Source: a virus (taxonomy: Duplodnaviria; Heunggongvirae; Uroviricota; Caudoviricetes). From it: DNA of 64,000 nucleotides. Shown here piece by piece: positions 4,482-64,000 of this stretch. Position numbers and translations under genes: made by a program. The notes beneath the pieces are model-generated. The model searched no databases. It was not told the DNA's origin and saw nothing but the letters and a program-made list of their open reading frames with translations. The stretch's first letter is position 1. Each line of letters begins with the position of its first letter. The stretch is taken from the IMG/VR virus record IMGVR_UViG_3300029841_000009, positions 4,544 to 68,543 of that record; one strand, written 5' to 3'.

Positions 4482-5086
4482 CAGGACAACCTCGCAATGG
4501 TAAACTCGTCAACCGGTGGCTGTGGTTCCTGTGATTCATTCTGGCTATGCGAGCCAGCACTAAGAATCACGCGATTGTACATATTGAGAGCAAATGTACC
4601 GAGATCCGCATTCCCAGTCAGCGCCATGTTAATGGCTGCCGCAAGACGCCAGGCCAGCGCCTCCATAAAAATGGCATCAAACATGTTTACATCTGAAACG
4701 CGAGAGACATACTTGAGCCATGCCTGCGGCTGGTCTGTGTAGATCAATTTTCCTGTTCCGTTGGTGTCTGCACCAACTTCGTACTGAACGCGCATTGCTG
4801 CTGTTGGATTGCGTACACCAGGAAGCATAATTTCAGTAATGCGCAGACAATCTGACGGGTACTGGTACGCATATTCCCAGTCAGGCGGTGGATTGCTCGT
4901 ATCTGCAAGCGCCACGCGTTTGGTAGCAAAGTTCCAGTCAAAATCAGAAAGCACAGCATCACGGCAGGCCTCAAAGTGCAGCGAACATTCCCCCGCTTCC
5001 TTGCTGGCTTCCGTCAGGCTGTTAATGCTGCGGCTGTTGCCAATATTGGACAGCGCACGATTGCAGATCTCTACTACAGAGGCCAT
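4481..5086 (-). CDS. Tail tubular protein A-like / head-tail adaptor (T7 gp11-like)
   Basis: 201 aa; N-terminal pattern ...ALSNIG...W.F resembles gp11-type adaptors; size and order fit. Confidence 0.55.
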   Translation of the reverse strand: MASVVEICNRALSNIGNSRSINSLTEASKEAGECSLHFEACRDAVLSDFDWNFATKRVALADTSNPPPDWEYAYQYPSDCLRITEIMLPGVRNPTAAMRVQYEVGADTNGTGKLIYTDQPQAWLKYVSRVSDVNMFDAIFMEALAWRLAAAINMALTGNADLGTFALNMYNRVILSAGSHSQNESQEPQPPVDEFTIARLS

Positions 5087-5977: not shown

Positions 5978-6970
5978 TTACACCACGCGGGCTTCTGTTT
6001 CCAGAAGCGCATCAGTTTCACGGATTGGTACACCACGGAATGAAGTCCACCACTCGCCTTCAGTCTCTTTTACGCTGATAGCCAGAGATGTTTTCTCCAG
6101 AGATTGCAGATCAAGAGCCTGGCCTACAGTGCGGTTCATGTAGAACACCGGGCGGCCCATGCCACGGTTTGGAATGCGATGTAGTGCTTTAACCATCAAC
6201 TTCGCAATATTTGCGGCAGAGGATGGTTCTGAAATATTGCTGACATCGATGTTTGCAATGCGAACAACATAACGCCAGTCACGCAGAGCAAGTCCGTTAT
6301 CCCATTTGTAATGGGTGCGATAGCCTTCGTACTTGCCGCCATTAGCATCTTCCAGTGTCACCTGGCCTTTATCTTCCATCTGGATGCCAGCCTTCTGCCC
6401 TTTCGGGAAGATGCCATGCACGGTGTTTTCGCCCCACACCACTAACCAGATTGAGGTGTTATCTGTACCCGTGCCACCAGCATCAATGATGTTCTGAGCA
6501 TTACCCGCAGACAGGCTGGAATAGCGGGAGGACAGTCCCATAAACTGCTGAGGGTTAACGCTGGAATCACCATAAAACAGCGTCTGCGCCATCTGCTGAT
6601 TCATCGCTTCAATAAATGCGCGGTCTTCAGACAGGCGGAATTCGGCGGTATTGCCGTTCAGATCAGCCAGTGACTTATCGACTTCCGCATAGGTTTCCAG
6701 CATGCCAACGGAATCGGTTACCTGCACTGTGGTTGATTTGCTTGGCTGTACGCCATAGTTCAGCAAACGCCAGGTAGCTGAAGGTAAACCAGAACGAATG
6801 GTGGTTCGGTGTCCGGTAGGAAGGTTCCCTTCGACAAAAGGCATATCCTGAAGGATCGGGTTAGTTTGACCGAGAAGCTCGATAATCTTATCGACTTTCC
6901 CGTTTGGATCGACGCGCTTACCCCAGTCAGCCAGCGTTAGCGCAGTTAAGCCTTTAACAGCCATTGTCAT
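5978..6970 (-). CDS. Major capsid protein
   Basis: 330 aa, between scaffold and tail genes; size and position of T7 gp10-like capsid protein. Confidence 0.65.
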   Translation of the reverse strand: MTMAVKGLTALTLADWGKRVDPNGKVDKIIELLGQTNPILQDMPFVEGNLPTGHRTTIRSGLPSATWRLLNYGVQPSKSTTVQVTDSVGMLETYAEVDKSLADLNGNTAEFRLSEDRAFIEAMNQQMAQTLFYGDSSVNPQQFMGLSSRYSSLSAGNAQNIIDAGGTGTDNTSIWLVVWGENTVHGIFPKGQKAGIQMEDKGQVTLEDANGGKYEGYRTHYKWDNGLALRDWRYVVRIANIDVSNISEPSSAANIAKLMVKALHRIPNRGMGRPVFYMNRTVGQALDLQSLEKTSLAISVKETEGEWWTSFRGVPIRETDALLETEARVV

Positions 6971-13184: not shown

Positions 13185-13224
13185 AACCCATCAAATTCAT
13201 CATGCATAACCCACTCGTGACATG

Positions 13225-13578
13225 TCACAATATTAATTTCGTTTCATGCCAGCCTTTAGTCACCCAGCATTGCGAGTCACCATTACACGGGCATGAATTC
13301 ACAGGAACTCTCTCGCCGCACTTACCGCAACGTTTTCTGCTGATCGATTTTATACGCCCGTGCACGCGCGCATCATCCTGGCGGATCAGTAACGCTATAT
13401 ACTCACCAAATTCGTAAGGCGCACGCCCGGGGCGACGTGTGGCACAGTTACGCTCCAGCATTTCAATTTCCTGAGCATCAAGCACAATCTCCAGCTTACG
13501 CACACCAGATGCAGCTTGTCTGGCTCTCTGAGCGGCTTTGCGCTCTGCTGCTGCCTTAGCCATTACCATATCCACCAA
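13225..13578 (-). CDS. Hypothetical protein with Cys-rich C-terminus
   Basis: 117-aa ORF upstream of TerS; CGKCG...CPC motif suggests zinc binding. Confidence 0.35.
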   Translation of the reverse strand: MVDMVMAKAAAERKAAQRARQAASGVRKLEIVLDAQEIEMLERNCATRRPGRAPYEFGEYIALLIRQDDARVHGRIKSISRKRCGKCGERVPVNSCPCNGDSQCWVTKGWHETKLIL

Positions 13579-13648
13579 ACTTCACCAGACATGATTCTCG
13601 CAATCACTATCATCACCAAAGTGATAATCACAACTTTAACTGGCGGCA

Positions 13649-14026
13649 TCATTCACCATCCTGCTCCGGCGGTTCTGGCAGCGGCATCCAGTGGGTTACC
13701 TCCTTGAGATACAGGTCTTCGCCACCACCGTCATCCCAAGTGGGCTTGCCATCATTAAACCAGTCGCCATATACGCCGACCTGAGTGTTGGGGATGCTTG
13801 GTGGGTAGTTGTTTTTAAAGTCAGCAGCTAACACATAGCATTGTCGCTCTCCCATTTCTGGCATTCGTTCACTACAGCTTATCCAACTCTCCGGAGTTAC
13901 CGGAGAGTTGCCAGCCTCATACGCCACACGCATCCAGTGCATAAGCGTTTCAGTGCTCACACAGCCGCAATCAACATCAATTTTGCCGTGCTGCTGTTCC
14001 AGCCATTGCTCAAGCGTAGTGCTCAT
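13649..14026 (-). CDS. DUF551-like protein
   Basis: C-terminal THWMPLPEPPE motif typical of lambdoid DUF551 proteins. Confidence 0.55.
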   Translation of the reverse strand: MSTTLEQWLEQQHGKIDVDCGCVSTETLMHWMRVAYEAGNSPVTPESWISCSERMPEMGERQCYVLAADFKNNYPPSIPNTQVGVYGDWFNDGKPTWDDGGGEDLYLKEVTHWMPLPEPPEQDGE

Positions 14027-14256: not shown

Positions 14257-14900
14257 TCGTACTCACCCCCCGCTGTTTTGAATTTGATCTCCGCTGCCTG
14301 CAATGCGTGTTCGACGTCGAAGCGGTCCAGCCATCCACCAAAGTGGTGCGGCATCATTACCACCCGCTCACCGCTATTTATTGGGTGGCCCATACGGGGT
14401 TCGTAGCCGTCCGGTAACTCGACTTCCCGCGCTTCCAGTTCTGCTATGCGCTTCTCTGATGCTTCAAGTAACGCCTGCTTATCGCGTAGCGCTTCTTCCA
14501 GTTCAGCAACATGGCACTCACTATCAATAAGGTTGTTCTCTGCGGCTTCCAGCTCAACACGCAGCTTCCCTACCGTTAGCGCAATATCCTCGTTCTCTTG
14601 GTCGCGGCGTTTGATGTATTGCTGGTTTCTTTCCCGTTCATCCAACAATGCCAGCACGGTAACTGGATTGGCTGCGGCGATGAATTCAGCATTGGCCTGC
14701 TGTTCCATTTGGAAATCTTCATCGAAACCGCTTTCAGGATGCGCTCCTTCAATTCTGCAAATGGGAAGATATCCAACAACTTCACGATGAATTAGCGCAT
14801 CACCAGCATCAAATCTCTCCTCTCCATATTCTAGCGACCACACACCACACGTTGCTTTTTCTGCCTTAGCACGCAGTGCCTGGTAATTAATTTCGCTCAC
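14253..14900 (-). CDS. Ead/Ea22-like protein
   Basis: N-terminus MSEINYQALRAKAEKA and coiled-coil core LLDERERNQQYIKRRDQENEDIALTVGKLRVELEAAE, as in lambdoid Ead/Ea22 proteins. Confidence 0.55.
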   Translation of the reverse strand: MSEINYQALRAKAEKATCGVWSLEYGEERFDAGDALIHREVVGYLPICRIEGAHPESGFDEDFQMEQQANAEFIAAANPVTVLALLDERERNQQYIKRRDQENEDIALTVGKLRVELEAAENNLIDSECHVAELEEALRDKQALLEASEKRIAELEAREVELPDGYEPRMGHPINSGERVVMMPHHFGGWLDRFDVEHALQAAEIKFKTAGGEYE

Positions 14901-15137
14901 TGGCTGCCTCCTGCTTTTCTGCCTTCAACACCATGCGAGAACCATCATCCAGCTCCCACACTATCTCACCACCTTCAGCCATGACCAGTTGCCACACCAA
15001 TTGAGCAGCCTCATTGGTAACATCACGACCTGGATCATTGCCAACGCGCATACGTCCACCTTCAACATCGCGCATTTTTGCCAGCATGATAGTTTTTGAT
15101 AGCGGTGAAAAACCAAGCTGTAGTCGTGCTGAATTAC

Positions 15138-15764
15138 TCACTGGTTGCCTCCTTTGCGAAGCTGTTCCGCCCATTCTTCAAGGGATTTCTCCGCATATTC
15201 ACCGGACAGGCCATCAATCGGATGCGCTTCATTAACCAACTCTTCTTTCGCTGACAAAATCATGCGTGTAACGTCGAAAACTTCACGCAAAGACTTATTG
15301 ATAAATCCGTGATTGAACGCAGCAGCAAGACGGCTGGCGGTATAGTTAATCCCCTCGTTGCGTGCTTCCGCACGAATTTCAGCCAGAAAAGCATCGGTAG
15401 CTGGAGTTTCGCTGTGGTGTAGGGCATCATTGATAATCATTGCAGCAACACCAGCCTGCCCTGCATCCGTGACCGACACATGCTCAAGAGTTACGGCCAT
15501 TGCGTGTTTCAGTCCGTCGTTCTCCACCACCAGCGCAGCGAGATTAGTCTCATACTCCGCAATTCGGCACATAGCATCGATATTTGTGTCCTCCAGCCGC
15601 TTAATTTCATCCAGTAGCGCCAGCACAACCTGCGGTGTGACCTTCATACGAAACGCGAGCAATTTTTGCGGCGTTGCCACGACTTTTATTGCTTCTGCTG
15701 CCTCACGCAGTGCCTGGTAATTAATTTCGCTCACTGGTTGCCTCCTGAATACGCTTAAACTCAA
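15138..15764 (-). CDS. Ead/Ea22-like protein (paralog)
   Basis: Contains SEINYQALREAAEA; its 3' ~250 bp is near-identical to 63750-64000. Confidence 0.5.
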   Translation of the reverse strand: MSLSVFRRQPVSEINYQALREAAEAIKVVATPQKLLAFRMKVTPQVVLALLDEIKRLEDTNIDAMCRIAEYETNLAALVVENDGLKHAMAVTLEHVSVTDAGQAGVAAMIINDALHHSETPATDAFLAEIRAEARNEGINYTASRLAAAFNHGFINKSLREVFDVTRMILSAKEELVNEAHPIDGLSGEYAEKSLEEWAEQLRKGGNQ

Positions 15765-16790: not shown

Positions 16791-17089
16791 GCCACAGCCC
16801 CTCTCAACGGCTTAACTTTGGCTAATAAGGTGTTAAACAACATGGAGTTAGGATTCATGCCAAATGGCAATTCCGGTTTAGCGGAGTAGTACAGGCAACC
16901 ATTTATTTTCCTGGTTGTTATCTGTCCTTCGGCAACCATGCTTCTCAGTCTGCAACGCATAGAGTTCTGCGACACACCAATGTGCTCCGCGATTACGTCC
17001 ACTTTTGAACATGGGTGATCGGTCAGGAAATTAATCACATCTTGGGGGTTAATAATTTTGCGTTTCATTGTCGAGGCGTCCTTATACAT
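16787..17089 (-). CDS. Putative DNA-binding protein (probable start at MKRKIINPQD, about 17068)
   Basis: Helix-turn-helix-like segment; AT-rich iteron lies just upstream. Confidence 0.4.
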   Translation of the reverse strand: MYKDASTMKRKIINPQDVINFLTDHPCSKVDVIAEHIGVSQNSMRCRLRSMVAEGQITTRKINGCLYYSAKPELPFGMNPNSMLFNTLLAKVKPLRGAVA

Positions 17090-17117
17090 TTATATAAATA
17101 TATAATTCTATATACGG
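17084..17117. repeat. AT-rich iteron (TATATAAAT..TATAATTCTATATA family)
   Basis: Shares the TATAAAT / TATAATT core with seven other copies in the window. Confidence 0.5.
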
Positions 17118-17145: not shown

Positions 17146-18213
17146 TCAGGCTTTCAATAGCGATTCTTTCAGATATCGGGCATCAGCCAGGGCATTTGGA
17201 GTAATCTTGCGAACCCATGCATTACGGGTTGGACTCCACTTAAAGGCGCGTGATTTAAGCAGCGAACGAATGTTTGCCTCTGGTTTGCCAGGGAAATAAA
17301 ACAGGATGCGGTTATCCTCTGGATCTATCTCCATAGAAAAGTCGTCGTATTCTTCGCGCTGTGCTCCTGTTACAGACTTGACCGATTCAAGCTCCTTAAT
17401 ACGGCTCTGTAGTCGTTTGATCTCGGCGTTATTGTTGCTCAGTGCGTATGAAGGGAATCCGATGTGCCCACAGAAATCTCCGGCCAGTAACTCTTTGGCT
17501 TCGCTTTCTGTAAACCTGAGATCGATTAATGCAGAAAGCTGCTGTAATTGGTCTTTTTTGTATTTGCGAATGGCCTTATTTGCGGCCTTCATTTTGACGT
17601 GTGACTTCATGCAGCCTTGCAGCTTACGAAGCAACTTAAATAGCGCATCAGGATCATCAGACGAAATTCCATTACGACCAACACCTGCGGCTTTGCTCTC
17701 GTAGTGTGATGCTTTACTTTCGCATTCAACAAACGCTTTTCTTAATAACGCATCAGCTTTAGACAAACGGCGGCGATGGCCTTTCGCGCTATAATGGTCA
17801 ACTAAAATCGGCTGGCCTAACGGGATCACATCCAACAGGTCATGCGCTCGCTTATGCGCTACCGCACCTTCTTTTCTGGCTTTTTCTGCACGAGCAATAT
17901 ATCGGGCAAGACGCGCGTTCTGGCGTTCCTGATAGGTGTTTACGTAATCATCTCCGCGCTGCTGCTGTTCAAGCCATGCTTTGCGCAGATCTTCTGTTAC
18001 GTCCACCAGCTCCGCAGGGATACAACCAGTTTGGGCTTCATAAGAGTAACCATCCTCATAGATACGCCCATCATCTTCAACAAAGAAAAAGGTTTCGTGC
18101 TCATCGCTTTTGACCATACGACCATTAACATGGCGTAATAGGTAGCCAGTATCAGTGCTTAACAGGCTGTTAGGGTTGTTGATCCAGTCAGAAATAATTA
18201 CTTGTTTATTCAT
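17146..18213 (-). CDS. DUF3560-like protein
   Basis: 355 aa; central IPLGQPILVDHYSAKGHRRRLSKAD segment typical of DUF3560. Confidence 0.5.
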   Translation of the reverse strand: MNKQVIISDWINNPNSLLSTDTGYLLRHVNGRMVKSDEHETFFFVEDDGRIYEDGYSYEAQTGCIPAELVDVTEDLRKAWLEQQQRGDDYVNTYQERQNARLARYIARAEKARKEGAVAHKRAHDLLDVIPLGQPILVDHYSAKGHRRRLSKADALLRKAFVECESKASHYESKAAGVGRNGISSDDPDALFKLLRKLQGCMKSHVKMKAANKAIRKYKKDQLQQLSALIDLRFTESEAKELLAGDFCGHIGFPSYALSNNNAEIKRLQSRIKELESVKSVTGAQREEYDDFSMEIDPEDNRILFYFPGKPEANIRSLLKSRAFKWSPTRNAWVRKITPNALADARYLKESLLKA

Positions 18214-18335
18214 CAGATTTCTCCGGTTTAACCAGGGCGGGTATCGCTCGGTTTCGGGTATAACCTTAGGAAATTTTTTCCCACCTGTAAAGCACTTTTT
18301 ATATAAATCTATAATTATATATTTATAGATTTTCG
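18214..18335 (-). promoter_or_regulatory. Conserved promoter-leader cassette, copy 1
   Basis: AT-rich iteron, then -35 TTTACA, 17 bp, -10 TAAGGT, about 50-nt leader with GGAG SD; near-identical copies at 28215-28333 and 58794-58911. Confidence 0.5.
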
Positions 18336-19096: not shown

Positions 19097-19497
19097 TTGG
19101 TATCCCCTGGTACTTCACCAAGACTAAGATCAAACCCAATTTCGTCTTTAACTGACTGCGGCAACAGCTCCCACGTCTGCGCACACAAAAATTCATCGGT
19201 GCCATAACGCTCAACAAAGCGAGCACAATTACTCAGGGGAGGGTGACGAACGGCAATATGCGGAGGCACGCGCCCACCACCAGGCACAACACCGCGATGA
19301 TGTGGTGCGCACAACCCAAAGCTATGGAAGTGGCAATTCTCATCAACGCTGCCGTAATCAGGATCGTGATGTAGCTCCGTCCACAGCTCTGGATTCTCAA
19401 TTTCACGGCCATCAATAATGCAAGCTATGCAACCCACGTGAGTGAGCACCGCTTGTATATAAAGTTTCTCTTTCTTCGTTGGTGTACGTCCGTTCAT
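19093..19497 (-). CDS. Ref-like HNH nuclease (recombination enhancement function family)
   Basis: GCIACIIDG...ELHHDPDYGSVDENCHFHSFGLCAPHHRG: His/Cys-rich HNH-like motif as in P1 Ref-type proteins. Confidence 0.45.
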   Translation of the reverse strand: MNGRTPTKKEKLYIQAVLTHVGCIACIIDGREIENPELWTELHHDPDYGSVDENCHFHSFGLCAPHHRGVVPGGGRVPPHIAVRHPPLSNCARFVERYGTDEFLCAQTWELLPQSVKDEIGFDLSLGEVPGDTK

Positions 19498-20752: not shown

Positions 20753-20870
20753 ACCACGATATGTGGTATTAAAACCACATATCGTGAGTTTTTCAATGGG
20801 CAAAACAAAAAATAACCTTCTATTTGTGGTCCACCTCTCGTCTTACCATGTGAAAACCACTAAATGTGGT
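20753..20870. promoter_or_regulatory. Operator cluster between cro-like and CI-like genes
   Basis: Three 15-bp palindromes: ACCAC-GATAT-GTGGT (20753-20767), ACCAC-ATATC-GTGAG (20774-20788), ACCAC-TAAAT-GTGGT (20856-20870). Confidence 0.55.
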
Positions 20871-20907: not shown

Positions 20908-21564
20908 ATGAAAAGCAACGACGAGAACATCAAGAAAGAAATAGGTCTGCGCATTCAGACTCTACGGAAACAATCCGGCATGACTGCCGGAGATCTCCAG
21001 CAAGTCACTGGAATAGGCTTAAGCACCTTGCAGAACTATGAGGCCGGATTAAGACAACCATCTATACCTGCCATCAAGAAAATCGCGCACGCCCTGAAAG
21101 CATCAGCGCCTTATATCGCGTGCTTAACAGATAACCCGTTCCCACCCCAGAATACTAACGCTCCTGTTATTCCTGGGCTTGTAGCTATAAAAAATGACAT
21201 AGCATCGCACGCCGGAGAAAAGCCAGTGCTGGCGATAGAACAGGAGATTCTACGAAGCAAGAACATCAACCCATCGTCTCTGTCAGTTCTCCAGAGCAAC
21301 GATGAGTTAATGTCACCAACAATATCCCCTGGCTCCCAAGTCCTGATTGATACAGACGATACAGAGATTCATGAGGGGATCTATGCCCTTGAAGACAGAA
21401 ATGGCCTGGTTGTTTTGAGGCACTGTAGAGTCATACCGGGTGACAATGCTGTTATGCTGTCAACCGAAAGGGATGCTGAAATGAACACTAAGCATCTGAA
21501 TAACGAGGAATTTAAGCGTTATAAAGTTCTGGGCCGCGTAGTTAGTGTTGTCAACTGGTTATGA
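20908..21564 (+). CDS. CI-like repressor (HTH-XRE N-domain + S24 LexA-like peptidase C-domain)
   Basis: N-terminal HTH (IGLRIQTLRKQSGMTAGDLQQVTGIGLSTLQNYEAG); C-terminal S24-like segment (ELMSPTISPGSQVLIDTDD). Confidence 0.8.
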   Translation: MKSNDENIKKEIGLRIQTLRKQSGMTAGDLQQVTGIGLSTLQNYEAGLRQPSIPAIKKIAHALKASAPYIACLTDNPFPPQNTNAPVIPGLVAIKNDIASHAGEKPVLAIEQEILRSKNINPSSLSVLQSNDELMSPTISPGSQVLIDTDDTEIHEGIYALEDRNGLVVLRHCRVIPGDNAVMLSTERDAEMNTKHLNNEEFKRYKVLGRVVSVVNWL

Positions 21565-21606: not shown

Positions 21607-21621
21607 ACCACATTTTGTGGT
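21607..21621. promoter_or_regulatory. Operator site (ACCAC-ATTTT-GTGGT)
   Basis: Perfect palindrome of the same family, upstream of the 21657 gene. Confidence 0.5.
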
Positions 21622-22054: not shown

Positions 22055-22055
22055 T

Positions 22056-22160
22056 ATATGATTATAGATTTATATAATTATATAAAACGCTTTTCATCCG
22101 CCAAAAAGTTGGTTATGCTTACCTCGTTCTATAAATATAGATTTATAGAATTATATAACC
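22056..22160. repeat. AT-rich iterons flanking the parA promoter (centromere/operator candidate)
   Basis: TATGATTATAGATTTATATAATTATATAA (22056-22088) and CTATAAATATAGATTTATAGAATTATATAA (22129-22160). Confidence 0.55.
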
Positions 22161-22166
22161 AAACAC

Positions 22167-22835
22167 ATGGAGTCTCGACAAATGACTATCTCTGTAGGTA
22201 TTTTCAACGGAAAAGGCGGCGTAACCAAATCAACAATTGCCCGTGCTTTAGCAGTTGCTTATGCAAAGGCTGGCTGGAATGTATGCCTGATCGATATGGA
22301 TGTGCTTAACGGAACGGTAACGCGTTGGGTACAACGCAGAATGGCCAACAATATCGAACCAGCAATCGCGGCGCAGCCGTGCGGCACACCATCACAAGTC
22401 CAGAAAATCATCGAATCAGAAGTATACGACCTGGTTATCGTCGATGGCGGTGCCTACGCATCTGAATCAGTACCGAAGCTCTCTGAATTTCTGGATATGG
22501 TTATTTTGCCAACCAGATTCTCTACCGATGACCTGGAAACCACCGTTAACACAGCTCACGGCATCGTTAAAAAGGGTGTACCAATCAAGAAAATTTGCAT
22601 GGTGTTTTCCGGCGCGGCTGAAAACGAAGCTGACTATATTGAAGCCCAAGAGTACCTGGCTAATACGCCATACTTTGTTGTCGATAAGTACATTCCCCAC
22701 AAGCCAGCTCTGAGCAAAGCTCAGGATAAGGGCTTAAGCCTTATTGAGTGCTCATACGTTGCGCCACGCAAAAAGGCAGACGATGTTATCCAGGGGATTA
22801 TCAATCAGCTTGAGGCTCTGACTACTGCCGCGTAA
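22167..22835 (+). CDS. parA: ParA/Soj-family partition ATPase (start possibly 22182)
   Basis: Deviant Walker A GIFNGKGGVTKST; about 220 aa, typical small ParA; GGAG SD 9 nt upstream of the second ATG. Confidence 0.8.
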   Translation: MESRQMTISVGIFNGKGGVTKSTIARALAVAYAKAGWNVCLIDMDVLNGTVTRWVQRRMANNIEPAIAAQPCGTPSQVQKIIESEVYDLVIVDGGAYASESVPKLSEFLDMVILPTRFSTDDLETTVNTAHGIVKKGVPIKKICMVFSGAAENEADYIEAQEYLANTPYFVVDKYIPHKPALSKAQDKGLSLIECSYVAPRKKADDVIQGIINQLEALTTAA

Positions 22836-22872
22836 TATATAATTATAGTTTTATAGATTTATATAAAAGGGG
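22835..22872. repeat. AT-rich iteron between parA and the RHH gene
   Basis: TAATATATAATTATAGTTTTATAGATTTATATAAAAGG. Confidence 0.5.
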
Positions 22873-22878
22873 ATACAC

Positions 22879-23127
22879 ATGGCCGCACCATCAAAACCAC
22901 CGAAAAAGAACAGCAAAGGCGTACCGCCATCAATCGAACAACCGCAGGTTTTCGACCCGACTGAAACGCCGACCAGAACCAAATCAGGTGGGGCACAAAT
23001 GGCGTTTAACGTCGACCCTGAATTTAAACGCGAGTACAAAACGTTCGCCAGCTCAATGGATATGTCATTGAAAGAAGTGCTGACAAAATCTTTTGAGTTA
23101 CTCAAGGCTCAATACAACCAGAAGTAA
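22879..23127 (+). CDS. ParG-like ribbon-helix-helix partition / centromere-binding protein
   Basis: 82 aa with disordered basic N-terminus and C-terminal RHH-like MAFNVDPEFKREYKTFASSMDMSLKEVLTKSFELLKAQ; directly downstream of parA. Confidence 0.55.
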   Translation: MAAPSKPPKKNSKGVPPSIEQPQVFDPTETPTRTKSGGAQMAFNVDPEFKREYKTFASSMDMSLKEVLTKSFELLKAQYNQK

Positions 23128-23349: not shown

Positions 23350-23371
23350 AAAAAAGGCCCCCGAAGGGGCC
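23350..23371 (-). terminator. Rho-independent terminator (minus-strand orientation)
   Basis: GGCCCC-cgaa-GGGGCC hairpin with T5 on the minus strand. Confidence 0.5.
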
Positions 23372-23377
23372 TAATCG

Positions 23378-23500
23378 CTACTTGCTGCTAATGTTTATCG
23401 TCACATTCAGAGCGTTATCAGTAATCTTCCAACCCTCCCCATGTGGCGTAAACAAAGCTCCAGTAACAACGATAAAAATACACATACAGTATTTTTTCAT
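23378..23500 (-). CDS. Small hydrophobic protein (40 aa, MKKYCMCIFIVVTGALFTPHGEGW...)
   Basis: Internal start of the 23378-23560 ORF with AAGGG SD 7 nt upstream; hydrophobic N-terminus; terminator downstream. Confidence 0.3.
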   Translation of the reverse strand: MKKYCMCIFIVVTGALFTPHGEGWKITDNALNVTINISSK

Positions 23501-23731
23501 TGTATGGCCCTTACAGGCCGTTTCACGGCATCCCCACCGACGAAAACAACGCGAGAGCAAGCACGGCTGCTTGTGCTTGCATGTACGGCAACGGAGAATC
23601 CTCCCCTAAAGTCGGTGCCCGGGTGCGAATCGGCGGGAAGGTCCACAGGTATTTTACGATTATTTTAAGATTAGTTATAGGAAAGAAATTAAACGAAAAA
23701 ACTCGTTTATTTTCACAAAATCAGTAACCTA

Positions 23732-23943: not shown

Positions 23944-23958
23944 CCCACACTATGTGGT
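23944..23958. promoter_or_regulatory. Operator-like site (CCCAC-ACTAT-GTGGT) upstream of the antirepressor operon
   Basis: Palindrome of the operator family, next to a TTGACA -35-like hexamer at 23985. Confidence 0.45.
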
Positions 23959-24014: not shown

Positions 24015-24095
24015 CGAGCCGTAGCAAAATCTACGGTCGGGATTGGAACCCCGATAATCATCATGGCGCATACCGCGTTAGCGGTTTTTTTATGC
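24015..24095 (+). ncRNA. Candidate c4-like antisense/regulatory RNA in the antirepressor leader
   Basis: Hairpins CCGTAG-caaaat-CTACGG and TCGGG-AUUGGAA-CCCGA, then terminator ACCGC-gtta-GCGGT plus T7; loop UUGGAAC is complementary to GUUCCAA at 24175-24181. Confidence 0.3.
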
Positions 24096-24256
24096 GTAAA
24101 GCACTGCTACACCCAAATTATGGTGGGGCGTGCGGGGGAGTCGTAAGACTCGCCGGATTCCATGGTGACCGGTAGTTCCAACCCTGTACGTCTCACCACC
24201 CAATGATTGGAACCAGACGGTGGTGAGTATCCTTAACCTTTAAGGGAACTATCACC

Positions 24257-27833: not shown

Positions 27834-28214
27834 TTACTTAACGAGGAATAAAAATGGTTTATCGTTCGGCGGTGTACTCGGGGCTGGCTCGCTTTTGCTC
27901 ATACGATCAGTGTACCAGGCCAGCTCCTTGTCAAAGTAAGCCTGATTAAAATAGGCCATGAATGTGGTTTCAAATCCATAACGACCGCTAATACGCAGCA
28001 TCTGATTGCCGTTCTCTGTTTCCAGATATACCTGGGCACGTTCCTGATTCTCCTTCAGCCAAGTTAAAGCCTCGTCGCACGAGGACACACGATACTCATC
28101 ATCGTAGCCGTCATCGATGCGGCTTGAAGAAGAACGGCAAATCACGCCAACAGAACCAGCCAGGATAGTTTGAATTTTAAGGAAAGCGTTTTTGCGGATT
28201 TTAATCATGCTCAT
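27834..28214 (-). CDS. Hypothetical protein driven by cassette copy 2
   Basis: 126-aa ORF directly downstream of the conserved promoter-leader cassette. Confidence 0.45.
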   Translation of the reverse strand: MSMIKIRKNAFLKIQTILAGSVGVICRSSSSRIDDGYDDEYRVSSCDEALTWLKENQERAQVYLETENGNQMLRISGRYGFETTFMAYFNQAYFDKELAWYTDRMSKSEPAPSTPPNDKPFLFLVK

Positions 28215-28333
28215 CGGGTTATCTCCGGTTTAACCAGGGCGGGTATCGCTCGGTTTCGGGTATAACCATAGGAAATTTTTTCCCACCTGTAAAGCACTTT
28301 TATATAAATCTATAATTATATAATTCTATGAGC
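28215..28333 (-). promoter_or_regulatory. Conserved promoter-leader cassette, copy 2
   Basis: Near-identical to 58794-58911; -35 TTTACA, 17 bp, -10 TATGGT, leader, GGAG SD, ATG. Confidence 0.5.
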
Positions 28334-29854: not shown

Positions 29855-30039
29855 TTATTATATCTACGATGATAGGAAATCTTTTCCTATGTGGCAATAG
29901 AAATTTACTACATTGCGTATAAGACAAGTTTTCTATGTCTAATAGGAAATGATGTTTCTTACATTTTATCGCGTTCTGATGGCTACTGTGTGCGTATTTA
30001 TCGACGTTTATTGATAAGGCTCGCCCCTTCCTCCTGCAA

Positions 30040-30485: not shown

Positions 30486-31334
30486 TTAATGTTGGAGTGA
30501 TTTCCAGGTCTTTCTTAACCTGTTATAACGCTGCTCAACGAGGGATCGTAAATATGCAAGGTCAGCACCAGGATACATGCCATCAGCAAATTCCTGACTA
30601 ACCTCTCTGGTGATTTGATGACGAAGTTCGGCCTCTCCCTTTTCCCGAACAAGACGCGCAGCTCTCTCCGCTGCTTTCTGTTTTGCCTTTATCTCTCTGG
30701 CCGTCTTCCTCTGACGCCATACATTCTCCATCTGCTCCTGAATAACAATACGCTTATAATCAGCCTCCGTTATCGCTTTTTTAAGCCGTTCGCTATTCTT
30801 CGCATTGAAGTAATTAAGTTTCTGGCTAACCGCACGTCTCCATGCTTGTTCAGTAATACCAACGGTTTCCAGCAGTTGATCACGAATCTCTATTTTCGCT
30901 GGCCAATACTGTTTATTCACCCGATCCCAGCGACGTTCATAATCAATAAAACCTAACGCTTTCAGTTGCGACAACGCCCTTGTACAGCGCGTTATAGACT
31001 TGTTCCCAGCTTCGGATACGGTAGACAGGCCGCAAAAATCAGCCAACGCCTCAGCACTAGCCAGAACCCGCTTAGAAATGATGTTTACATGGTGCAAAAT
31101 CGCAGCGATCACAGCATTAATCGCCCGACGACGATGCTCGTTTATCCGGCGCTTCCGCTCTGACGGTTGATTAACGTAGAACGCAACCTCACACGTAAGA
31201 TCACGCCCATTAATGCGCTGTAAAGCATCAGATAACACCAGCGGCAGCTTGTGCGTATGGTGCTTTGGAGGCTGGAACTCCGGCGACAAATTACAAACGT
31301 AAGCTGAACGTAGAGACGGCATTGGTCTATCCAT
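30486..31334 (-). CDS. repA: IncFII-type replication initiator RepA (ORF extends to 31466 but likely starts at MDRPMPSL)
   Basis: Segment KSITRCTRALSQLKALGFIDYE and basic C-terminus resemble IncFII RepA1; the upstream in-frame extension overlaps an antisense promoter/terminator. Confidence 0.75.
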   Translation of the reverse strand: MDRPMPSLRSAYVCNLSPEFQPPKHHTHKLPLVLSDALQRINGRDLTCEVAFYVNQPSERKRRINEHRRRAINAVIAAILHHVNIISKRVLASAEALADFCGLSTVSEAGNKSITRCTRALSQLKALGFIDYERRWDRVNKQYWPAKIEIRDQLLETVGITEQAWRRAVSQKLNYFNAKNSERLKKAITEADYKRIVIQEQMENVWRQRKTAREIKAKQKAAERAARLVREKGEAELRHQITREVSQEFADGMYPGADLAYLRSLVEQRYNRLRKTWKSLQH

Positions 31335-31378
31335 ATGTTCGCTCTTGCGTCCACGGAAAACCAACGTATAATGGGAGT

Positions 31379-31460
31379 TGTCGAGGCGCCCATGGATTGT
31401 TGTTGTTGGTTTTCCGTGGATGTCGCAAGAAGCCCGCAGATTTATCTGCGGGCTTTTTGT
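31379..31460 (+). ncRNA. CopA-like antisense RNA candidate opposite the repA leader
   Basis: Plus-strand promoter TTGCGT-16 bp-TATAAT (31345-31372), stem-loop, and terminator GCCCGCAG-attta-TCTGCGGGC-TTTTT (31430-31458). Confidence 0.35.
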
Positions 31461-31502
31461 TTCCATATCTGGTCACTTTCCAACCAGACACCCACAATCA
31501 TA

Positions 31503-39548: not shown

Positions 39549-42333
39549 AACTTAATCTCCGTTGTTGGAACATATGAGCACTCAATTTCTTCTCAAAATC
39601 AGAATATCCCGCATCTAATGCTCTTTTAGCTGCCGCCTCAGTTTCCTTTGGTGAACCAGCCGGAAGATTGATTACAGGTGAATAGGTTATTCCACCAGTC
39701 ACAGCGTTAACGTTCTGGCGAGGTCCAGAAGTCCCAGCGGCAGATATCCCGTGAGGTGATAAATTTGATTGCCCGAACTTGCTTGCTATTGCATTCTGTA
39801 AGCTGTTATTCCTGCTAACACCTGATGCCAGAGTAGTCATTATTGCACCACCTGACTTTGTTAGCTGTGAGAATGGACCTTTTTTCGCGTCAGAGAACGG
39901 TAAATACTCACGTACAGAAGAAAAAACGCCTTTCACTTCATTAATTAAAGCATTTGCTTTTGATTTTATCCCAGTGATTAACGTCTCAATTATTTTTGCG
40001 CCTGACTCACTCCAGTTTATTCCAGATAAATAAGTCGTTACAGATTGGAATGCTCTTATAAAGAGTCCAACTGGTGAAAAACGCATAAAAACAGATACCA
40101 GTGTATCTATGATTTTCTTTCCTGTTTCGCTCCAGTTAATGCCAGAAAGGTAATTTGTTGTAATTTTAAATGCTTTAATTAAGAACGGAAGCGGAGACAT
40201 CCATTTAAAAGCACTAATTAATGTACTGTAAATTCTTACTCCTGCCGAACTCCAGTTTATGTTGGAAAGATAATCCCATGCTTTACCAAACATAGATATA
40301 ATCCATCCATTGAGGTCAAAGTTTAAGATAAAGTTTTTTATAGCCTCAAATGATTTAACTGTATATTCCTTAACAGAAGGCCAAACTCTGACAGCATAAT
40401 CTCTGATCTTATCCCAATTCTGATAGAGCAATATTCCTGCGGCAACCAGCGCAGATATAGCCATCTGAATCCACCCGAAGGGTGTTAGCTTTGTCGCTAC
40501 AGATAAAGCCAGCATAGCTACCCTACACGCTATAACCACACTTTTCATGGTTAGAAACGCACCTGCCGCCATCACTATCTGAGACACAAAATTGGGGTTG
40601 TTAGCTACAAATTCACTAATTTTTGTAATCAGCGGAACCAAAACACTAAGCGCGGCATTCAAAGCAGGTTGCAAGGCCTGACCAAAACTTAATGATGCAT
40701 TGCTAGCCTGAATACGTAATTGTTTCAATCGCTCCGCATTATCTTTCGTTATGTTGGCAAAATCGCGGTCAATAACAGCACTTCCAGCTCCAAGAGATGT
40801 TGCTTTGATTCTCTGGTATTCCTTCCAGTTTTGAATCATCGGACGAACAAAGTTCTGAACCTGCATATCGCCAAATAGTTCACCAAGTAACTTCTGATCT
40901 CCGTTCTTAGTCATTTTCATGACAGAATGCATTGCAGCTTCGAATGGATTCTTCCCTTTTTTCTGCGCTGTTGTAACAATTTTATATAAATCTACACCGA
41001 AATTTTTCTTTGCTTTTTTTAGTGTTTCAGGGGAAAGTATTTTTGCCAAAAAGTTGTTCATATTATTAGCAGCCTCATCCGAAGTTGCAGCCCCCTTGCG
41101 AGCTATCTGCAAAGCTGCACCCATCGTCGCGGCTGCTTCTTTACCTCCCATTTTTAATGCCTGGAACTGAGCACCAAGCACAGGAAGATTTTTGGCCATA
41201 TCTTTAAATTCAAAGTTCCCCTCTTTCCCTGCCTGAACCAGAATCCCCATTGCAGACTTCATTTGAGATGGATCAATCTTCAATGAGTCACTTAATGTAA
41301 ATGATGCTTTCGAGACATCGAGGATATCAGAGCCAGTAGCTGTAGCTGTTCGCCCAATAGTTAGTAGATTCGCCTGAGCCTCTTTATAATCCTGCCCAGC
41401 AGCGACGAGAAAACCCTGAGCGGCCTGAATATCAGATGCAAACTGGTTGGTAGCCGTTCCGGTAACAAGCATCGCCTGCCCCATCGCCTGAACTTCTTCC
41501 GGCTTCATATCTGCCGTAAGACCAATCATTTTGTTTTCACGATTGAAATTTGCTGCATTGTTAGCAGCAGCAAATGCACCAGCCGCTACAGCACCAGTTT
41601 GTAATCCTGACCTTACAAGTTGACTCTTTGCCTCACCAAGATGCTCTCGCTTCAATTCACGCTGCCTTTCCAACGCGCGGTTTAACTCCTCCTGAGCACG
41701 TTTTACTGCAAGAACATTTTTCCGTGCTTCAGCCAACGCATTTTTATAGCTGTTAATTTTATCAATACGTTGTTTTTCTAATGCCCGGTTAAGTTCCTCC
41801 TGCTGTTTTTTCACTTGCTGAACATTTGCTCTGGCTAAAGCCAAAGCCGTTCTGTAGCGGTTAACCTGCTCAACGCTACGGGCCTGAGCCTCACGATTAC
41901 GATCAATGCTGGCTTTAAGCTCTTTCTCTCTTGAGGCCAAAGCTCTGGCAGATGTATCAGCTCCCTGATAGGCAGACTTTAAAGCGGCCAGTTCTTCACG
42001 CTGAGAACGTAGTGATGCTCGTAAATTTGATGAATGTGTTTTTGCCTTCTCAAAGTCACGAAGCATCGCTCTGGTTGGATTGGCCGTGTTTTTTATTTGC
42101 TTCTGTAACTCTTCAACGCGAGCGGCAGCTTTATGATATTCGAGGGCAGTCTGTCCAACCTTTACTTTTACAGATTGTAGCTTTTGAATTTCCCCATGTT
42201 CTTTCGTTAACCCAGCAAGCTCTGCATTTAATTTAGCAACAGCCTGATTAGCTGTAGTAAAACTTTTGGGGAGAGAGGCGGCAACTTTGCCGCCAATTTC
42301 AAAAGCCAGCTTAAAGTTCTTATTGCTGGCCAT
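39541..42333 (-). CDS. Tail tape measure protein
   Basis: 930 aa; long coiled-coil N-half, hydrophobic central segments, and repeated motif ..W(S/M)..G..I..T(L/Y)...F. Confidence 0.8.
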   Translation of the reverse strand: MASNKNFKLAFEIGGKVAASLPKSFTTANQAVAKLNAELAGLTKEHGEIQKLQSVKVKVGQTALEYHKAAARVEELQKQIKNTANPTRAMLRDFEKAKTHSSNLRASLRSQREELAALKSAYQGADTSARALASREKELKASIDRNREAQARSVEQVNRYRTALALARANVQQVKKQQEELNRALEKQRIDKINSYKNALAEARKNVLAVKRAQEELNRALERQRELKREHLGEAKSQLVRSGLQTGAVAAGAFAAANNAANFNRENKMIGLTADMKPEEVQAMGQAMLVTGTATNQFASDIQAAQGFLVAAGQDYKEAQANLLTIGRTATATGSDILDVSKASFTLSDSLKIDPSQMKSAMGILVQAGKEGNFEFKDMAKNLPVLGAQFQALKMGGKEAAATMGAALQIARKGAATSDEAANNMNNFLAKILSPETLKKAKKNFGVDLYKIVTTAQKKGKNPFEAAMHSVMKMTKNGDQKLLGELFGDMQVQNFVRPMIQNWKEYQRIKATSLGAGSAVIDRDFANITKDNAERLKQLRIQASNASLSFGQALQPALNAALSVLVPLITKISEFVANNPNFVSQIVMAAGAFLTMKSVVIACRVAMLALSVATKLTPFGWIQMAISALVAAGILLYQNWDKIRDYAVRVWPSVKEYTVKSFEAIKNFILNFDLNGWIISMFGKAWDYLSNINWSSAGVRIYSTLISAFKWMSPLPFLIKAFKITTNYLSGINWSETGKKIIDTLVSVFMRFSPVGLFIRAFQSVTTYLSGINWSESGAKIIETLITGIKSKANALINEVKGVFSSVREYLPFSDAKKGPFSQLTKSGGAIMTTLASGVSRNNSLQNAIASKFGQSNLSPHGISAAGTSGPRQNVNAVTGGITYSPVINLPAGSPKETEAAAKRALDAGYSDFEKKLSAHMFQQRRLSFG

Positions 42334-58326: not shown

Positions 58327-58527
58327 TTAATGCTCGCGTCGTCCGGCGACAACTTCGGATTTGTATTTCAGGTCGCCCAGCAAGAATTGCAGTTTAAGCA
58401 TCTTTGCCGCCGTGTAGTTCCCTGATTCCACAACCTCTTTCATGAGGTCATAAACGGCCGCTACATCATCAGCCAGGAACTCTTTGCGTTGCTGCTCAGT
58501 CGCACGTTTGAAGGAAATACGCATCAC
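58327..58527 (-). CDS. Hypothetical protein
   Basis: 66-aa ORF coupled to the 58524 gene. Confidence 0.35.
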   Translation of the reverse strand: MMRISFKRATEQQRKEFLADDVAAVYDLMKEVVESGNYTAAKMLKLQFLLGDLKYKSEVVAGRREH

Positions 58528-58793
58528 TCATCATCTCCTGCCGCACATACAACCTCACAAAAAAAATCAGCAGAATGTTTCTCCTTGAACGAATGACGCT
58601 CAAAACCGCACTCAATATCAGGCGCAAAAACATCCACCACATACGGTCTTTCAGAATGTTTGTTTTCCCAACGATAAACCGTAGTGACGTTGAAATGTTT
58701 TAACGCTTCACGGAACTCAACGCTGCCAGTCAGGTTTTTTGAGGTCAGGTATTGCAGGAGGTTTTTTACTACTTCACGGTCTTGTACTTTCAT
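58524..58793 (-). CDS. Hypothetical protein driven by cassette copy 3
   Basis: 89-aa ORF immediately downstream of the conserved promoter-leader cassette. Confidence 0.45.
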   Translation of the reverse strand: MKVQDREVVKNLLQYLTSKNLTGSVEFREALKHFNVTTVYRWENKHSERPYVVDVFAPDIECGFERHSFKEKHSADFFCEVVCAAGDDE

Positions 58794-58911
58794 CGGGTTA
58801 TCTCCGGTTTAACCAGGGCGGGTATCGCTCGGTTTCGGGTATAACCATAGGAAATTTTTTCCCACCTGTAAAGCACTTTTATATAAATCTATAATTATAT
58901 AATTCTATACC
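58794..58911 (-). promoter_or_regulatory. Conserved promoter-leader cassette, copy 3
   Basis: -35 TTTACA (58872-58867), 17 bp, -10 TATGGT (58849-58844), leader with GGAG SD; AT-rich iteron 58877-58911. Confidence 0.5.
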
Positions 58912-59800: not shown

Positions 59801-59876
59801 TGGTGGCCCCTACCGGATTTGAACCGATGACCGTGCGATTATGAGTCGCCTGCTCTAACCACTGAGCTAAGGGGCC
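59801..59876 (-). tRNA. tRNA with CAU anticodon (tRNA-Ile2-like, or Met)
   Basis: Minus-strand read GGCCCCTTAGCTCAGTGGTTAGAGCAGGCGACTCATAATCGC...GGTTCAAATCC...GGGGCCACCA; close to my recollection of E. coli ileX in acceptor, D and anticodon arms. Confidence 0.8.
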
Positions 59877-60012: not shown

Positions 60013-60047
60013 AACTATATATTTATATAATTATAGAAATATATATT
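60013..60047. repeat. AT-rich iteron downstream of the spanin genes
   Basis: AACTATATATTTATATAATTATAGAAATATATATT, same family as the parA-flanking iterons. Confidence 0.45.
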
Positions 60048-62848: not shown

Positions 62849-63531
62849 TCCCCCTTCACGCCAATGCCAGCGGCGCGCTCGGCTTTACTTTGTTCCCAAA
62901 ACCACTTGTGAAGCTCCATAAGCTTTTCGTCAATCGGTGCATATTTGCGATTAAAGTAGGCCTGAGCATCTTTCTCAGATTCGTCCGGCAATTCGCCTGG
63001 GCCAAACAGTGTGTTATAAATCCATGCCAGTCCGCTCTTAGCGTCGCCAGTTGCCTGCCATTCGATAATCGCAGCCTGCATGACCAGAATGTTTTTCCCG
63101 ATTAACAGGTCCAGTTCTTTGTACCGGTTGCGGATGTATGCATTCTCGCTTTGTAATTTTGCGTTGCGCTTCTCTGCGGCTTCCAGCTCAACACGCAGCT
63201 TCCCTACCGTTAGCGCAATTTCCTCGTTCTCCTGGTCGCGTGATTTGATGTATTGCTGGTTTCTTTCCCGTTCATCCAGCAGCGCCTGCACTACTTCAGG
63301 GTTGAAAGCTGCGATATAACGAGCGTTGTTCTCTGCGTTTTTCTGTTCGTCGAATCCTGGCCAGTCGACAATATCTCCGTGATGATTATCACCTGGTGTG
63401 TGTACGGCGTACGTGCCGTATTTGCCCGGCGAAATAAATGCGACCCATTCACCCTGTGTTGCCTTTTCTGCCGCATCACGCAGTGCCTGATAGTCAATTT
63501 TGCTCATTGTGCCTCCTCGATTTCGTCCCAT
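62845..63531 (-). CDS. Ead/Ea22-like protein (probable start at MSKIDYQALRDAAEKA, 63507)
   Basis: Shares MS.I.YQALR.AAEKA and the coiled-coil core LLDERERNQQYIKSRDQENEEIALTVGKLRVELEAAE with 14253-14900. Confidence 0.5.
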   Translation of the reverse strand: MGRNRGGTMSKIDYQALRDAAEKATQGEWVAFISPGKYGTYAVHTPGDNHHGDIVDWPGFDEQKNAENNARYIAAFNPEVVQALLDERERNQQYIKSRDQENEEIALTVGKLRVELEAAEKRNAKLQSENAYIRNRYKELDLLIGKNILVMQAAIIEWQATGDAKSGLAWIYNTLFGPGELPDESEKDAQAYFNRKYAPIDEKLMELHKWFWEQSKAERAAGIGVKGE

Positions 63532-63737: not shown

Positions 63738-64000
63738 AACTGAACTCCTTTGCGAATCTGTTCCGCCCATTCTTCAAGGGATTTCTCCGCATATTCACCG
63801 GACAGGCCATCAATCGGGTACGGTTCATTAGCCAACTCTTCTTTCGCTGACAGAATCATGCGCGTAACGTCGAAAACTTCACGCAAAGACTTATTGATAA
63901 ATCCGTGATTGAACGCAGCAGCAAGACGGCTGGCGGTATAGTTAATCCCCTCGTTGCGTGCTTCCGCACGAATTTCAGCCAGAAAAGCATCGGTAGCTGG
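63734..64000 (-). CDS. Ead/Ea22-like protein, C-terminal part (gene runs off the right edge)
   Basis: Near-identical at DNA level to the 3' end of 15138-15764; stop TGA at 63734-63736. Confidence 0.5.
   Translation of the reverse strand, partial: PATDAFLAEIRAEARNEGINYTASRLAAAFNHGFINKSLREVFDVTRMILSAKEELANEPYPIDGLSGEYAEKSLEEWAEQIRKGVQL

Follow-up and report, generated by a model that had tools for sequence, protein, structure and literature searches.

Eight phased repeat arrays at the partition operon and at distal genes of an enterobacterial phage-plasmid, probable binding sites of its ribbon-helix-helix protein

The partition locus

We examined a set of short phased repeats in a 64,000-nt stretch of Caudoviricetes DNA (the window; positions 4,544 to 68,543 of IMG/VR record IMGVR_UViG_3300029841_000009), in which ~14.5-63.3 kb is one complete copy of a phage-plasmid of ~48.7 kb. 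The repeats stand at the partition (par) locus of this element, where parA is followed by a gene for an 82-amino-acid (aa) candidate centromere-binding protein, and at five further sites (Table 1). The initial annotation had called them iterons and proposed that the partition protein, or another protein binding them, acts as a global regulator. The locus has the features of a type Ib system, namely a small ParA, a gene for a ribbon-helix-helix (RHH) protein immediately downstream and a repeat cis site adjoining the operon. Since the small Walker-type ParA lacks a helix-turn-helix (HTH) domain and the downstream protein belongs to an RHH family, we classify the operon as type Ib.

ParA matched only CbiA/ParA/MipZ entries in Pfam and is annotated as ParA in the circular plasmid NZ_CP069971; its similarity to the TP228 ParF/ParA structures (4dzz) is weak. 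The 82-aa protein has a basic N-terminal tail (KPPKK..KG.PP) followed by a strand, QMAFNV, and helices at residues 47-59 and 62-79. A phmmer search of PDB with it found no match, and a profile of its close homologues gave only noise. An exhaustive search of representative sequences recovered ~50 small homologues of 74-92 aa that are 33-48% identical. In their alignment, the tail is variable apart from a conserved basic MA..KPPK...KG.PP and is followed by alternating residues of the LNFKV type and two amphipathic helices. Pfam RHH_10 was matched by 18 of the 51 family members and Antitox_RHH by 11 of the 51, and the family profile aligned to ParG of TP228 (1p94) across the strand and both helices (hhalign P=1.7e-4, 43 columns). 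The family falls outside Pfam ParG (PF09274), which the 82-aa protein did not match and one of the 51 homologues matched with E=0.018; PDB ParG against the family profile gave E=0.74. At the level of the family, the 82-aa protein is predicted to be an RHH protein distantly similar to ParG, and it is referred to below as the RHH protein.

Three arrays lie at this locus. Array A follows a terminator-like hairpin 3' of orf124 and ends 4 nt short of the -35 of a putative par promoter, which was read by eye from the sequence and is below threshold in a consensus scan. Array B begins ~8 nt past the -10, beyond the inferred start, and ends 9 nt before the parA Shine-Dalgarno sequence GGAG, an operator-like position to judge from the layout. 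The first base of array C directly follows the parA stop codon and its last base is 11 nt before the start codon of the RHH gene. The arrays had been described as flanking the ParA/RHH operon; they do flank parA, but not the whole operon, as array C is located between the two genes. The parA initiation region itself (22169-22184) has the form GGAG(N)CTCGACAA(A)TG and is nearly invariant in nucleotides among relatives whose ParA is only ~52-56% identical. The MarR-like gene at array D is preceded by CCTCGACAATG (17068-17083, -), as in the parA initiation region.

Table 1. Positions of arrays, promoters, genes and RNAs in the window. The pattern column gives the extent of matches to TATA-N4-TATA-N4-TATA.
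Feature	Position	Strand	Pattern match	Sequence or remark
Array A	22055-22086	+	22055-22082	TATATGAT TATAGATT TATATAAT TATATAAA
Array B	22128-22159	+	22136-22155	TCTATAAA TATAGATT TATAGAAT TATATAAC
Array C	22836-22867	+	22836-22863	TATATAAT TATAGTTT TATAGATT TATATAAA
Array D	17081-17112	-	17083-17112	TATAGAAT TATATATT TATATAAA TGTATAAG
Array E	18298-18329	-	18302-18321	TCTATAAA TATATAAT TATAGATT TATATAAA
Array F	28299-28330	-	28303-28322	CATAGAAT TATATAAT TATAGATT TATATAAA
Array G	58878-58909	-	58882-58909	TATAGAAT TATATAAT TATAGATT TATATAAA
Array H	60016-60047	ambiguous	60016-60043	TATATATT TATATAAT TATAGAAA TATATATT (read on + strand)
par promoter, putative	22091-22119	+		TTTTCA (22091-22096), 17-nt spacer, TATGCT (22114-22119)
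parA	22182-22835	+		217 aa, small Walker-type, GKGGVTKST, no N-terminal HTH
Gene of 82-aa protein	22879-23127	+		RHH-type candidate centromere-binding protein
Cassette E promoter/leader	18214-18297	-		TTTACA (18291-18286), 17-nt spacer, TAAGGT (18268-18263); DUF3560 gene 17146-18213
Cassette F promoter/leader	28215-28298	-		TTTACA (28293-28288), 17-nt spacer, TATGGT (28270-28265); 126-aa orf 27834-28214
Cassette G promoter/leader	58794-58877	-		TTTACA (58872-58867), 17-nt spacer, TATGGT (58849-58844); 89-aa orf 58524-58793
CI-like repressor gene	20908-21564			HTH/S24
CCAC-N5-GTGG palindromes	20755-20786, 20858-20870, 21607-21619, 23946-23958			include a 14-bp-stem inverted repeat
ryfA-like RNA	23350-23646	-		Rfam, above gathering score, 142 bits; just downstream of par operon
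isrK and C4 antisense RNA	24018-24203	+		Rfam, above gathering score; upstream of ORF6N antirepressor gene
repA	~30486-31466			IncFII-type
tRNA-Met(CAT)	59801-59876	-		downstream of array H
RelE/ParE toxin pair				encoded by the phage-plasmid

Eight arrays in the element

Each array is 32 bp long and consists of four contiguous 8-bp units with the consensus TATAKAWW. A search of the 64 kb with TATANNNNTATANNNNTATA (TATA-N4-TATA-N4-TATA) gave 13 overlapping matches that resolve into exactly eight loci, where dinucleotide shuffles lead one to expect 0.00. Three copies of the degenerate unit TATAKAWW with up to 3 mismatches returned the identical eight loci and no others. These are the eight positions that had been listed from inspection of the sequence, all recovered within 1-4 nt. 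Since a two-unit pattern added just three weak matches versus 1.6 expected by chance, the sites are all-or-none. A lone near-match of two units, TGTAGATTTATATAAA at 40981-40996 (-) in the tape-measure gene, does not exceed chance and probably has no meaning.

NZ_CP069971, which is 99% identical to the element, has these eight arrays and no others. There, all eight fall in non-coding DNA, in 7 of the 24 gaps that measure 40 bp or more; with non-coding DNA making up a fraction of 0.16, P for eight out of eight is ~5e-7. All lie within a 17-kb arc of early and maintenance genes and none in the 31-kb structural region. No other 32-mers of the element are as AT-rich as the arrays. Three further AT-rich gaps, including the one upstream of repA, are without the motif.

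The distribution bears on the term iteron, which together with the direct-repeat form of the arrays would suggest replication iterons bound by RepA. No array is in or next to repA and, as noted, the AT-rich gap upstream of it has no motif. Moreover, the Rep protein is of the IncFII_repA type, and replication of this type is controlled by antisense RNA and is not iteron-dependent. We regard binding by RepA as hardly credible and iteron as a misnomer for these repeats.

Promoter cassettes and other distal sites

Arrays E, F and G are each part of a cassette of ~120 bp that is 92-100% identical among the three. The order in the cassette is terminator of the upstream gene, array, 5-6 nt, TTTACA, 17 nt, TATGGT (TAAGGT at E), a leader of ~45 nt with a hairpin, Shine-Dalgarno sequence and ATG, with an open reading frame (orf) following (Table 1). 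Array F is 3' of the terminator at 28362-28340, and the first unit of array G overlaps the stop codon of the MT-A70 methyltransferase gene. Array D stands between the hairpin at the end of the DUF3560 gene, which it directly follows, and the Shine-Dalgarno/ATG (17068) of a 93-aa MarR-like gene, which it adjoins. Array H is ~140 nt upstream (in the - direction) of the genes for tRNA-Met and MT-A70.

A recognisable sigma-70 promoter adjoins only A, E, F and G, with the -35 at 4-6 bp from the array. Arrays B, C and D are directly upstream of Shine-Dalgarno sequences; B is downstream of the par promoter and C has no recognisable promoter. The earlier suggestion that the motif sits beside promoters at the five sites outside par is borne out for E, F and G but not for D and H. 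Apart from the array, no element is common to E, F and G, which have the cassette, and A, B, C, D and H, which do not.

The 17-bp spacer between -35 and -10 of the cassettes (18210-18329, 28211-28330 and 58790-58909, -) contains a palindrome, TAGGAAA-N-TTTCCCA, which in relatives reads TAGGACTAAAAGTCCTA or TAGGAAAAAAAGTCCTA. The palindrome also occurs, as a perfect copy, in a fourth promoter (29873-29889, TTGCCA-17-TATCAT) that has no array, so the array and the palindrome are separable. It is likely that a second, more conserved regulator acts on the palindrome.

The leaders of the cassettes (28212-28262 and 18211-18261, -; 13284-13340 in relative L002 and 13641-13695 in relative L004) share a small hairpin of constant shape, with a stem of 4-5 bp, a bulge, a stem of 3 bp and a 5-nt loop (z-scores -2.1 to -4.4). 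The stem sequences vary by replicon type, and in L002 and L004 there is additional pairing of an outer stem with the Shine-Dalgarno region. A MAFFT alignment offsets the two sequence classes by one base, which leaves the homology of the pairs ambiguous.

Repeat units in related loci

Relatives were found through ParA homologues and comprise ~20 syntenic loci with ParA 35-96% identical, from Escherichia, Serratia, Lelliottia, Pantoea and metagenomes. A profile scan of genome contigs with the ParA alignment contributed one true relative only. Generic lag-8 autocorrelation was too strict and missed most arrays, and searches anchored at par were used instead.

All of the ~20 loci have parA followed by a gene for an RHH homologue, and every relative examined in detail has the order array, -35, -10, array, Shine-Dalgarno, parA. 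Relatives with ParA 35-56% identical retain this layout with different 8-bp units, at least six units overall. Between arrays A and B, the diverged relatives have TTGCAC-17-TACGCT, TTTACA-17-TATCAT, TTCCAA-17-TATCAT/TATGAT or TTTACT-17-TAATCT at the position of the par promoter. The unit and the strand of the RHH homologue pair as follows: TATAKAWW with QMAFNV or QMSFNV (the window, L017 and L018); ATATAAAT / ATATCTTT with QLLLRL (L002, L019, L020 and L022-L024, with QLLLQL in L022); units with a TTTAA core with MNFN (L004, L021, L025/L007 and L034); TTCGTTAA with PMNFKV (L006); TTTCTGKM with GLNFKV (L026); and TTTCTACA-like units with GLNTEV (L027 and L028). The TTTAA core is shared by the MNFN-strand loci L004, L021, L025 and L034.

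In each replicon, the distal intergenic arrays bear the unit of its own par locus. There are five such arrays in L026, five in L002 and several in L004, each versus ~0 expected. When the loci were compared all against all, within a locus or among loci of one unit type the DNA upstream of par matched 1-6 distal sites, as against mostly 0-1 in loci of other types; the outlier is L028, whose TATA-rich upstream DNA cross-matches loci of the TATA type. The cassettes, with 26 copies in 10 loci, keep the array just upstream of the -35 though the sequences of both array and promoter differ by type. Array C has an equivalent in L017, L018, L006 and L033, a partial one in L004 and none in the L002 type, and the positions of D and H are kept in L017 and L018.

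These comparisons bear on the possibility that the arrays have no dedicated binder and are passive AT-rich elements copied along with the cassettes, acting as UP elements, as A/U-rich translational enhancers or as targets of H-NS or IHF. Such elements would account for the high AT content of the arrays, for the near-identity of cassettes E, F and G and for the position of B, C and D just 5' of Shine-Dalgarno sequences, where A/U-rich enhancers act. However, the 8-bp phasing is strict and the number of units is exactly four, a generic host factor or UP function needs no replicon-specific sequences, and the units TTTCTGKM and TTCGTTAA are not simply AT-rich and yet recur at par and distal sites. 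Copying with the cassettes is further at odds with the array being all that the cassette and non-cassette sites share and with the promoter that has the spacer palindrome without an array. We consider passive elements very unlikely.

One relative, L033 (NZ_CP077701), is a 26-kb IncFII/MPF_T colicin plasmid with a homologous ParA-RHH operon and TATA-phased arrays in the A/B/C layout. Its arrays are at 14418-14439, 15100-15198, 6217-6236, 13222-13241, 13722-13741 and 19191-19210 (8 matches versus 0.04 expected), and short phased arrays lie right before the Shine-Dalgarno sequences of virB10, a thermonuclease gene and another orf. By sequence, the dispersed-array design may extend to plasmids of the conjugative type.

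The protein that binds the arrays

Because the sequence of the arrays changes together with the RHH protein in relatives, this partition protein probably also regulates several further genes. Co-variation alone cannot single out the binder, since most proteins of these elements diverge along with the arrays. That same divergence would fit another replicon-specific binder, such as the CI-like S24 repressor, the fast-evolving orf124 product or a small regulator, with the par operon as one member of its regulon; in many loci, genes similar to orf124 are found in synteny directly 5' of array A.

Two mosaic relatives, L017 and L018, argue against such a binder. Compared with the window, they have ParA 96 and 93% and the RHH protein 91 and 95% identical, versus only 66 and 62% for the CI-like protein, 60 and 50% for orf124, 76 and 73% for orf164 and 68 and 69% for the DUF3560 protein. 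They nevertheless retain TATAKAWW at par and at the equivalents of D, E, F and H. Furthermore, L006, L027, L028 and L033 lack the CI/orf124 neighbourhood and yet keep ParA-RHH with arrays in the same layout. The ParA and RHH genes are the only ones that always adjoin arrays, whereas orf164, orf124, the MarR-like gene and HTH90 are missing from several array-bearing loci.

The CI-like repressor also appears to have operators of its own. CCAC-N5-GTGG palindromes (7 matches versus 1.3 expected) are located in the divergent CI-like/orf164 region, 3' of the repressor gene and ahead of the C4/isrK immI region, and do not coincide with any array. We take them as candidate operators for the repressor, whose own control region has no array. 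Finally, short direct repeats phased at 8 bp are the mode of RHH proteins and not of dimeric HTH repressors (PMC3130281). In TP228 parH/OF, the sites of ParG are 4-bp boxes with 4-bp spacers, an 8-bp period, and one dimer binds per box (PMC3130281). A binder other than the partition protein seems rather unlikely to us.

The mosaics, the persistence of arrays without CI/orf124, the separate candidate CI operators and the 8-bp phasing together point to the RHH protein. We favour the reading, at a probability of roughly 0.6, that the eight arrays are binding sites of the 82-aa RHH protein and serve as centromere and operator at par and as regulatory sites elsewhere. The RHH family match and the ParG-like 8-bp geometry support the original description of the par arrays as a centromere/operator of the ParG type. 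That the same binder acts at other transcription units, also proposed at the outset, is supported by the identity of the par and distal units and by the L017/L018 mosaics. The sequences directly show the arrays and their positions, the family of the RHH protein and the co-variation among relatives; from these we infer binding by the RHH protein, its cooperativity, the direction of regulation and its biological role.

Several observations weigh against this reading. Taken alone, the 82-aa protein has no Pfam match; its AlphaFold monomer is of low confidence (predicted local distance difference test score, pLDDT, of 65), with residues 1-40 disordered and helices at 47-59 and 62-79; and Foldseek searches of PDB with that monomer gave only meaningless matches, the RHH strand forming only in the dimer. 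The relation between strand and unit is no clean code: QMAFNV, QLLLRL and QLNLYI all occur with units of the TATA/ATAT type, and L006 and L026 have the same N and K at the putative contact positions and different units. In most loci the par module diverges along with the backbone, and only L017 and L018 separate the two. A convincing promoter was sought at D and H and none was found. In TP228, binding of ParG to four boxes alone is weak (PMC3130281), so isolated arrays of four units might be poorly occupied. Lastly, an array upstream of a -35 could activate instead of repress.

Comparison with known partition systems

The closest functional analogue appears to be omega of pSM19035, with ParG of TP228 the nearest in site geometry and operon form. 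Omega represses at its promoters. As in the phage-plasmid, the omega/delta system of pSM19035 combines a small RHH protein that has a flexible N-terminal tail with a small Walker ParA (PMC5016525; PMC9499535). The short-repeat arrays of pSM19035 are found at the promoters of several transcription units, where they are both parS and operators (PMC5016525). In contrast to the four 8-bp TATA-core units described here, omega recognizes 7-bp heptads, WATCACW, in arrays of 7-10. The omega and delta genes are transcribed separately, whereas parA and the RHH gene form an operon; pSM19035 is a plasmid of a Firmicute and not a phage-plasmid, and there is no detectable sequence relationship. The omega regulon consists of copy control and toxin-antitoxin genes, while the genes at the arrays are mostly small and without assigned function.

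The TP228 system, ParF-ParG-parH/OF, likewise encodes in one operon a small ATPase of the ParA superfamily and then an RHH protein whose tail is disordered, and its 4-bp boxes with AT-rich 4-bp spacers form an operator and centromere upstream of the operon (PMC3130281). It differs in that the box is ACTC, with 12 + 8 copies in one block, as opposed to TATA and 3 x 4 units at par here, and in that no dispersed sites are reported. In addition, the ParA here is only remotely ParF-like and, as stated above, the RHH protein is outside Pfam ParG.

The initial annotation had drawn a parallel with KorB of IncP plasmids. A review passage that cites Balzer 1992 describes KorB as a partition protein with a dozen dispersed sites and a global repressor (PMC5016525). 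The concept of a partition protein as global regulator carries over, but the analogy is loose because KorB is an HTH protein of the ParB family that binds a palindromic 13-bp OB and can act at a distance, while the par operon here encodes ParA and an RHH protein only; omega and SopB of N15 are closer. The SopAB system of N15 (and of phiKO2 and PY54), with sites IR1-4, resembles the present case in being that of a phage-plasmid with partition sites scattered over the genome (PMC7205306; PMC5016525). It is, however, a type Ia system with a large HTH ParB/SopB, single 16-bp palindromes and a linear replicon, as compared to a type Ib RHH protein and direct-repeat arrays confined to the early/maintenance arc.

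The sites of N15 raise the question of whether the RHH protein might bind all eight arrays for partition only, with proximity to promoters incidental or a result of cassette duplication. Besides the four centromere sites IR1-4 of N15 (PMC7205306), scattered over the genome according to a review (PMC5016525), pSM19035 has six copies of parS (PMC9499535), and four contiguous repeats, the number in each array here, are a minimal functional parS in pSM19035 and enough for ParA activation by omega (PMC9499535). Arrays C, D and H, which are not at promoters, would also fit a purely centromeric role. On the other hand, the array stays a few bp upstream of the -35 in diverged relatives that have other array and promoter sequences, the par promoter lies between A and B in all types, and the arrays are confined to the 17-kb arc and not spread round the circle; the centromere and operator roles moreover coincide in pSM19035. 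We think a dispersed centromere alone is unlikely.

Repeat clusters on both sides of the partition genes are also a feature of another type Ib system, ParA-ParB of pB171 par2, where they are known as parC1 and parC2. The repeats of pB171 are 6 bp long and form two large clusters. We know of no dispersed regulon of this system.

Proposed mechanism and significance

We propose that one dimer of the RHH protein would bind per 8-bp unit, such that four dimers coat each 32-bp array cooperatively. Arrays A, B and C, with 12 units, would form the partition complex or centromere and the autoregulatory operator of the type Ib system, with A and B bracketing the par promoter, A against the -35 and B past the start, and with C preceding the RHH gene. 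A protein coat on arrays E, F and G would end 5-6 bp short of the -35 and occlude the -35 and upstream region, most likely resulting in repression. Since promoters of the form TTTACA-17-TATGGT are fairly good unaided, repression is likelier than activation at these sites. The parS arrays of omega overlap several promoters (PMC5016525; PMC9499535).

The accessory genes would in this manner be tied to the level of the partition protein, on at entry into a naive cell and damped as the RHH protein accumulates. The predicted regulon comprises the DUF3560 protein and the products of the 126-aa and 89-aa orfs, whose functions are not assigned by family, and through D and H it may include the MarR-like gene and tRNA-Met/methyltransferase. 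More speculatively, arrays of the B, C and D type 5' of Shine-Dalgarno sequences could be roadblocks inside transcripts. The distal arrays may also add centromere capacity; both roles coincide in pSM19035.

If the RHH protein occupies all eight arrays, segregation would be coupled to a small regulon of lysogeny, establishment or accessory genes, and a cloned 32-bp array should titrate the RHH protein, with destabilisation of the element and derepression of the cassettes. Coupling of segregation and regulation is known from pSM19035 omega and IncP KorB, and dispersal of sites from N15; what would be new here is the phage-plasmid setting, the incorporation of uniform four-unit arrays into insulated promoter cassettes and the presence of at least six specificities that have diversified in a concerted manner. 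We found no description in the literature of dispersed-array control for type Ib systems in enterobacterial phage-plasmids, in a search of incomplete coverage.

More tentatively, we suggest that a widespread family of enterobacterial phage-plasmids and at least some small plasmids of the conjugative type use a type Ib RHH protein as master regulator of terminator-insulated, moron-like cassettes, with at least six private pairings of strand and 8-bp unit in which all sites switch together. If true, these pairings would define partition and regulatory incompatibility groups and constitute a natural look-up table for RHH-DNA recognition. Phage-plasmids of this kind are common in clinical E. coli, and the concerted switching of units would offer a comparative data set for the rules of RHH recognition and for predicting incompatibility of co-resident phage-plasmids.

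The host element

The phage-plasmid encodes a contractile tail, capsid, terminase and lysis genes. It is 98-99% identical to ~60 E. coli plasmids that are circular, non-mobilizable and 47-50 kb long, NZ_CP069971 among them, and 96-98% identical to Yersinia phages vB_YpM_39/41/44. In PLSDB, 62 plasmids match the par region, 58 of them at 95% identity or above. A candidate identification with pSLy3 was rejected, as pSLy3 belongs to the SSU5-type group. A literature search, again of incomplete coverage, found no description of this phage-plasmid family, its arrays or the Yersinia phage accessions. The organisation of the C4/isrK RNAs before an ORF6N antirepressor gene resembles P1 immI.

The first 14.5 kb of the window belong to a phiV10/TL-2011b-like prophage. 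The junction between the prophage and the phage-plasmid was searched for in complete E. coli genomes of RefSeq and none had it. The abutting of the two looks like a cointegrate that arose through homologous recombination, or else like a join made in assembly. Segments similar to ead/Ea22 and 92-97% identical to each other bracket the phage-plasmid (14536-14657 versus 63170-63291, and 15149-15404 versus 63745-64000).

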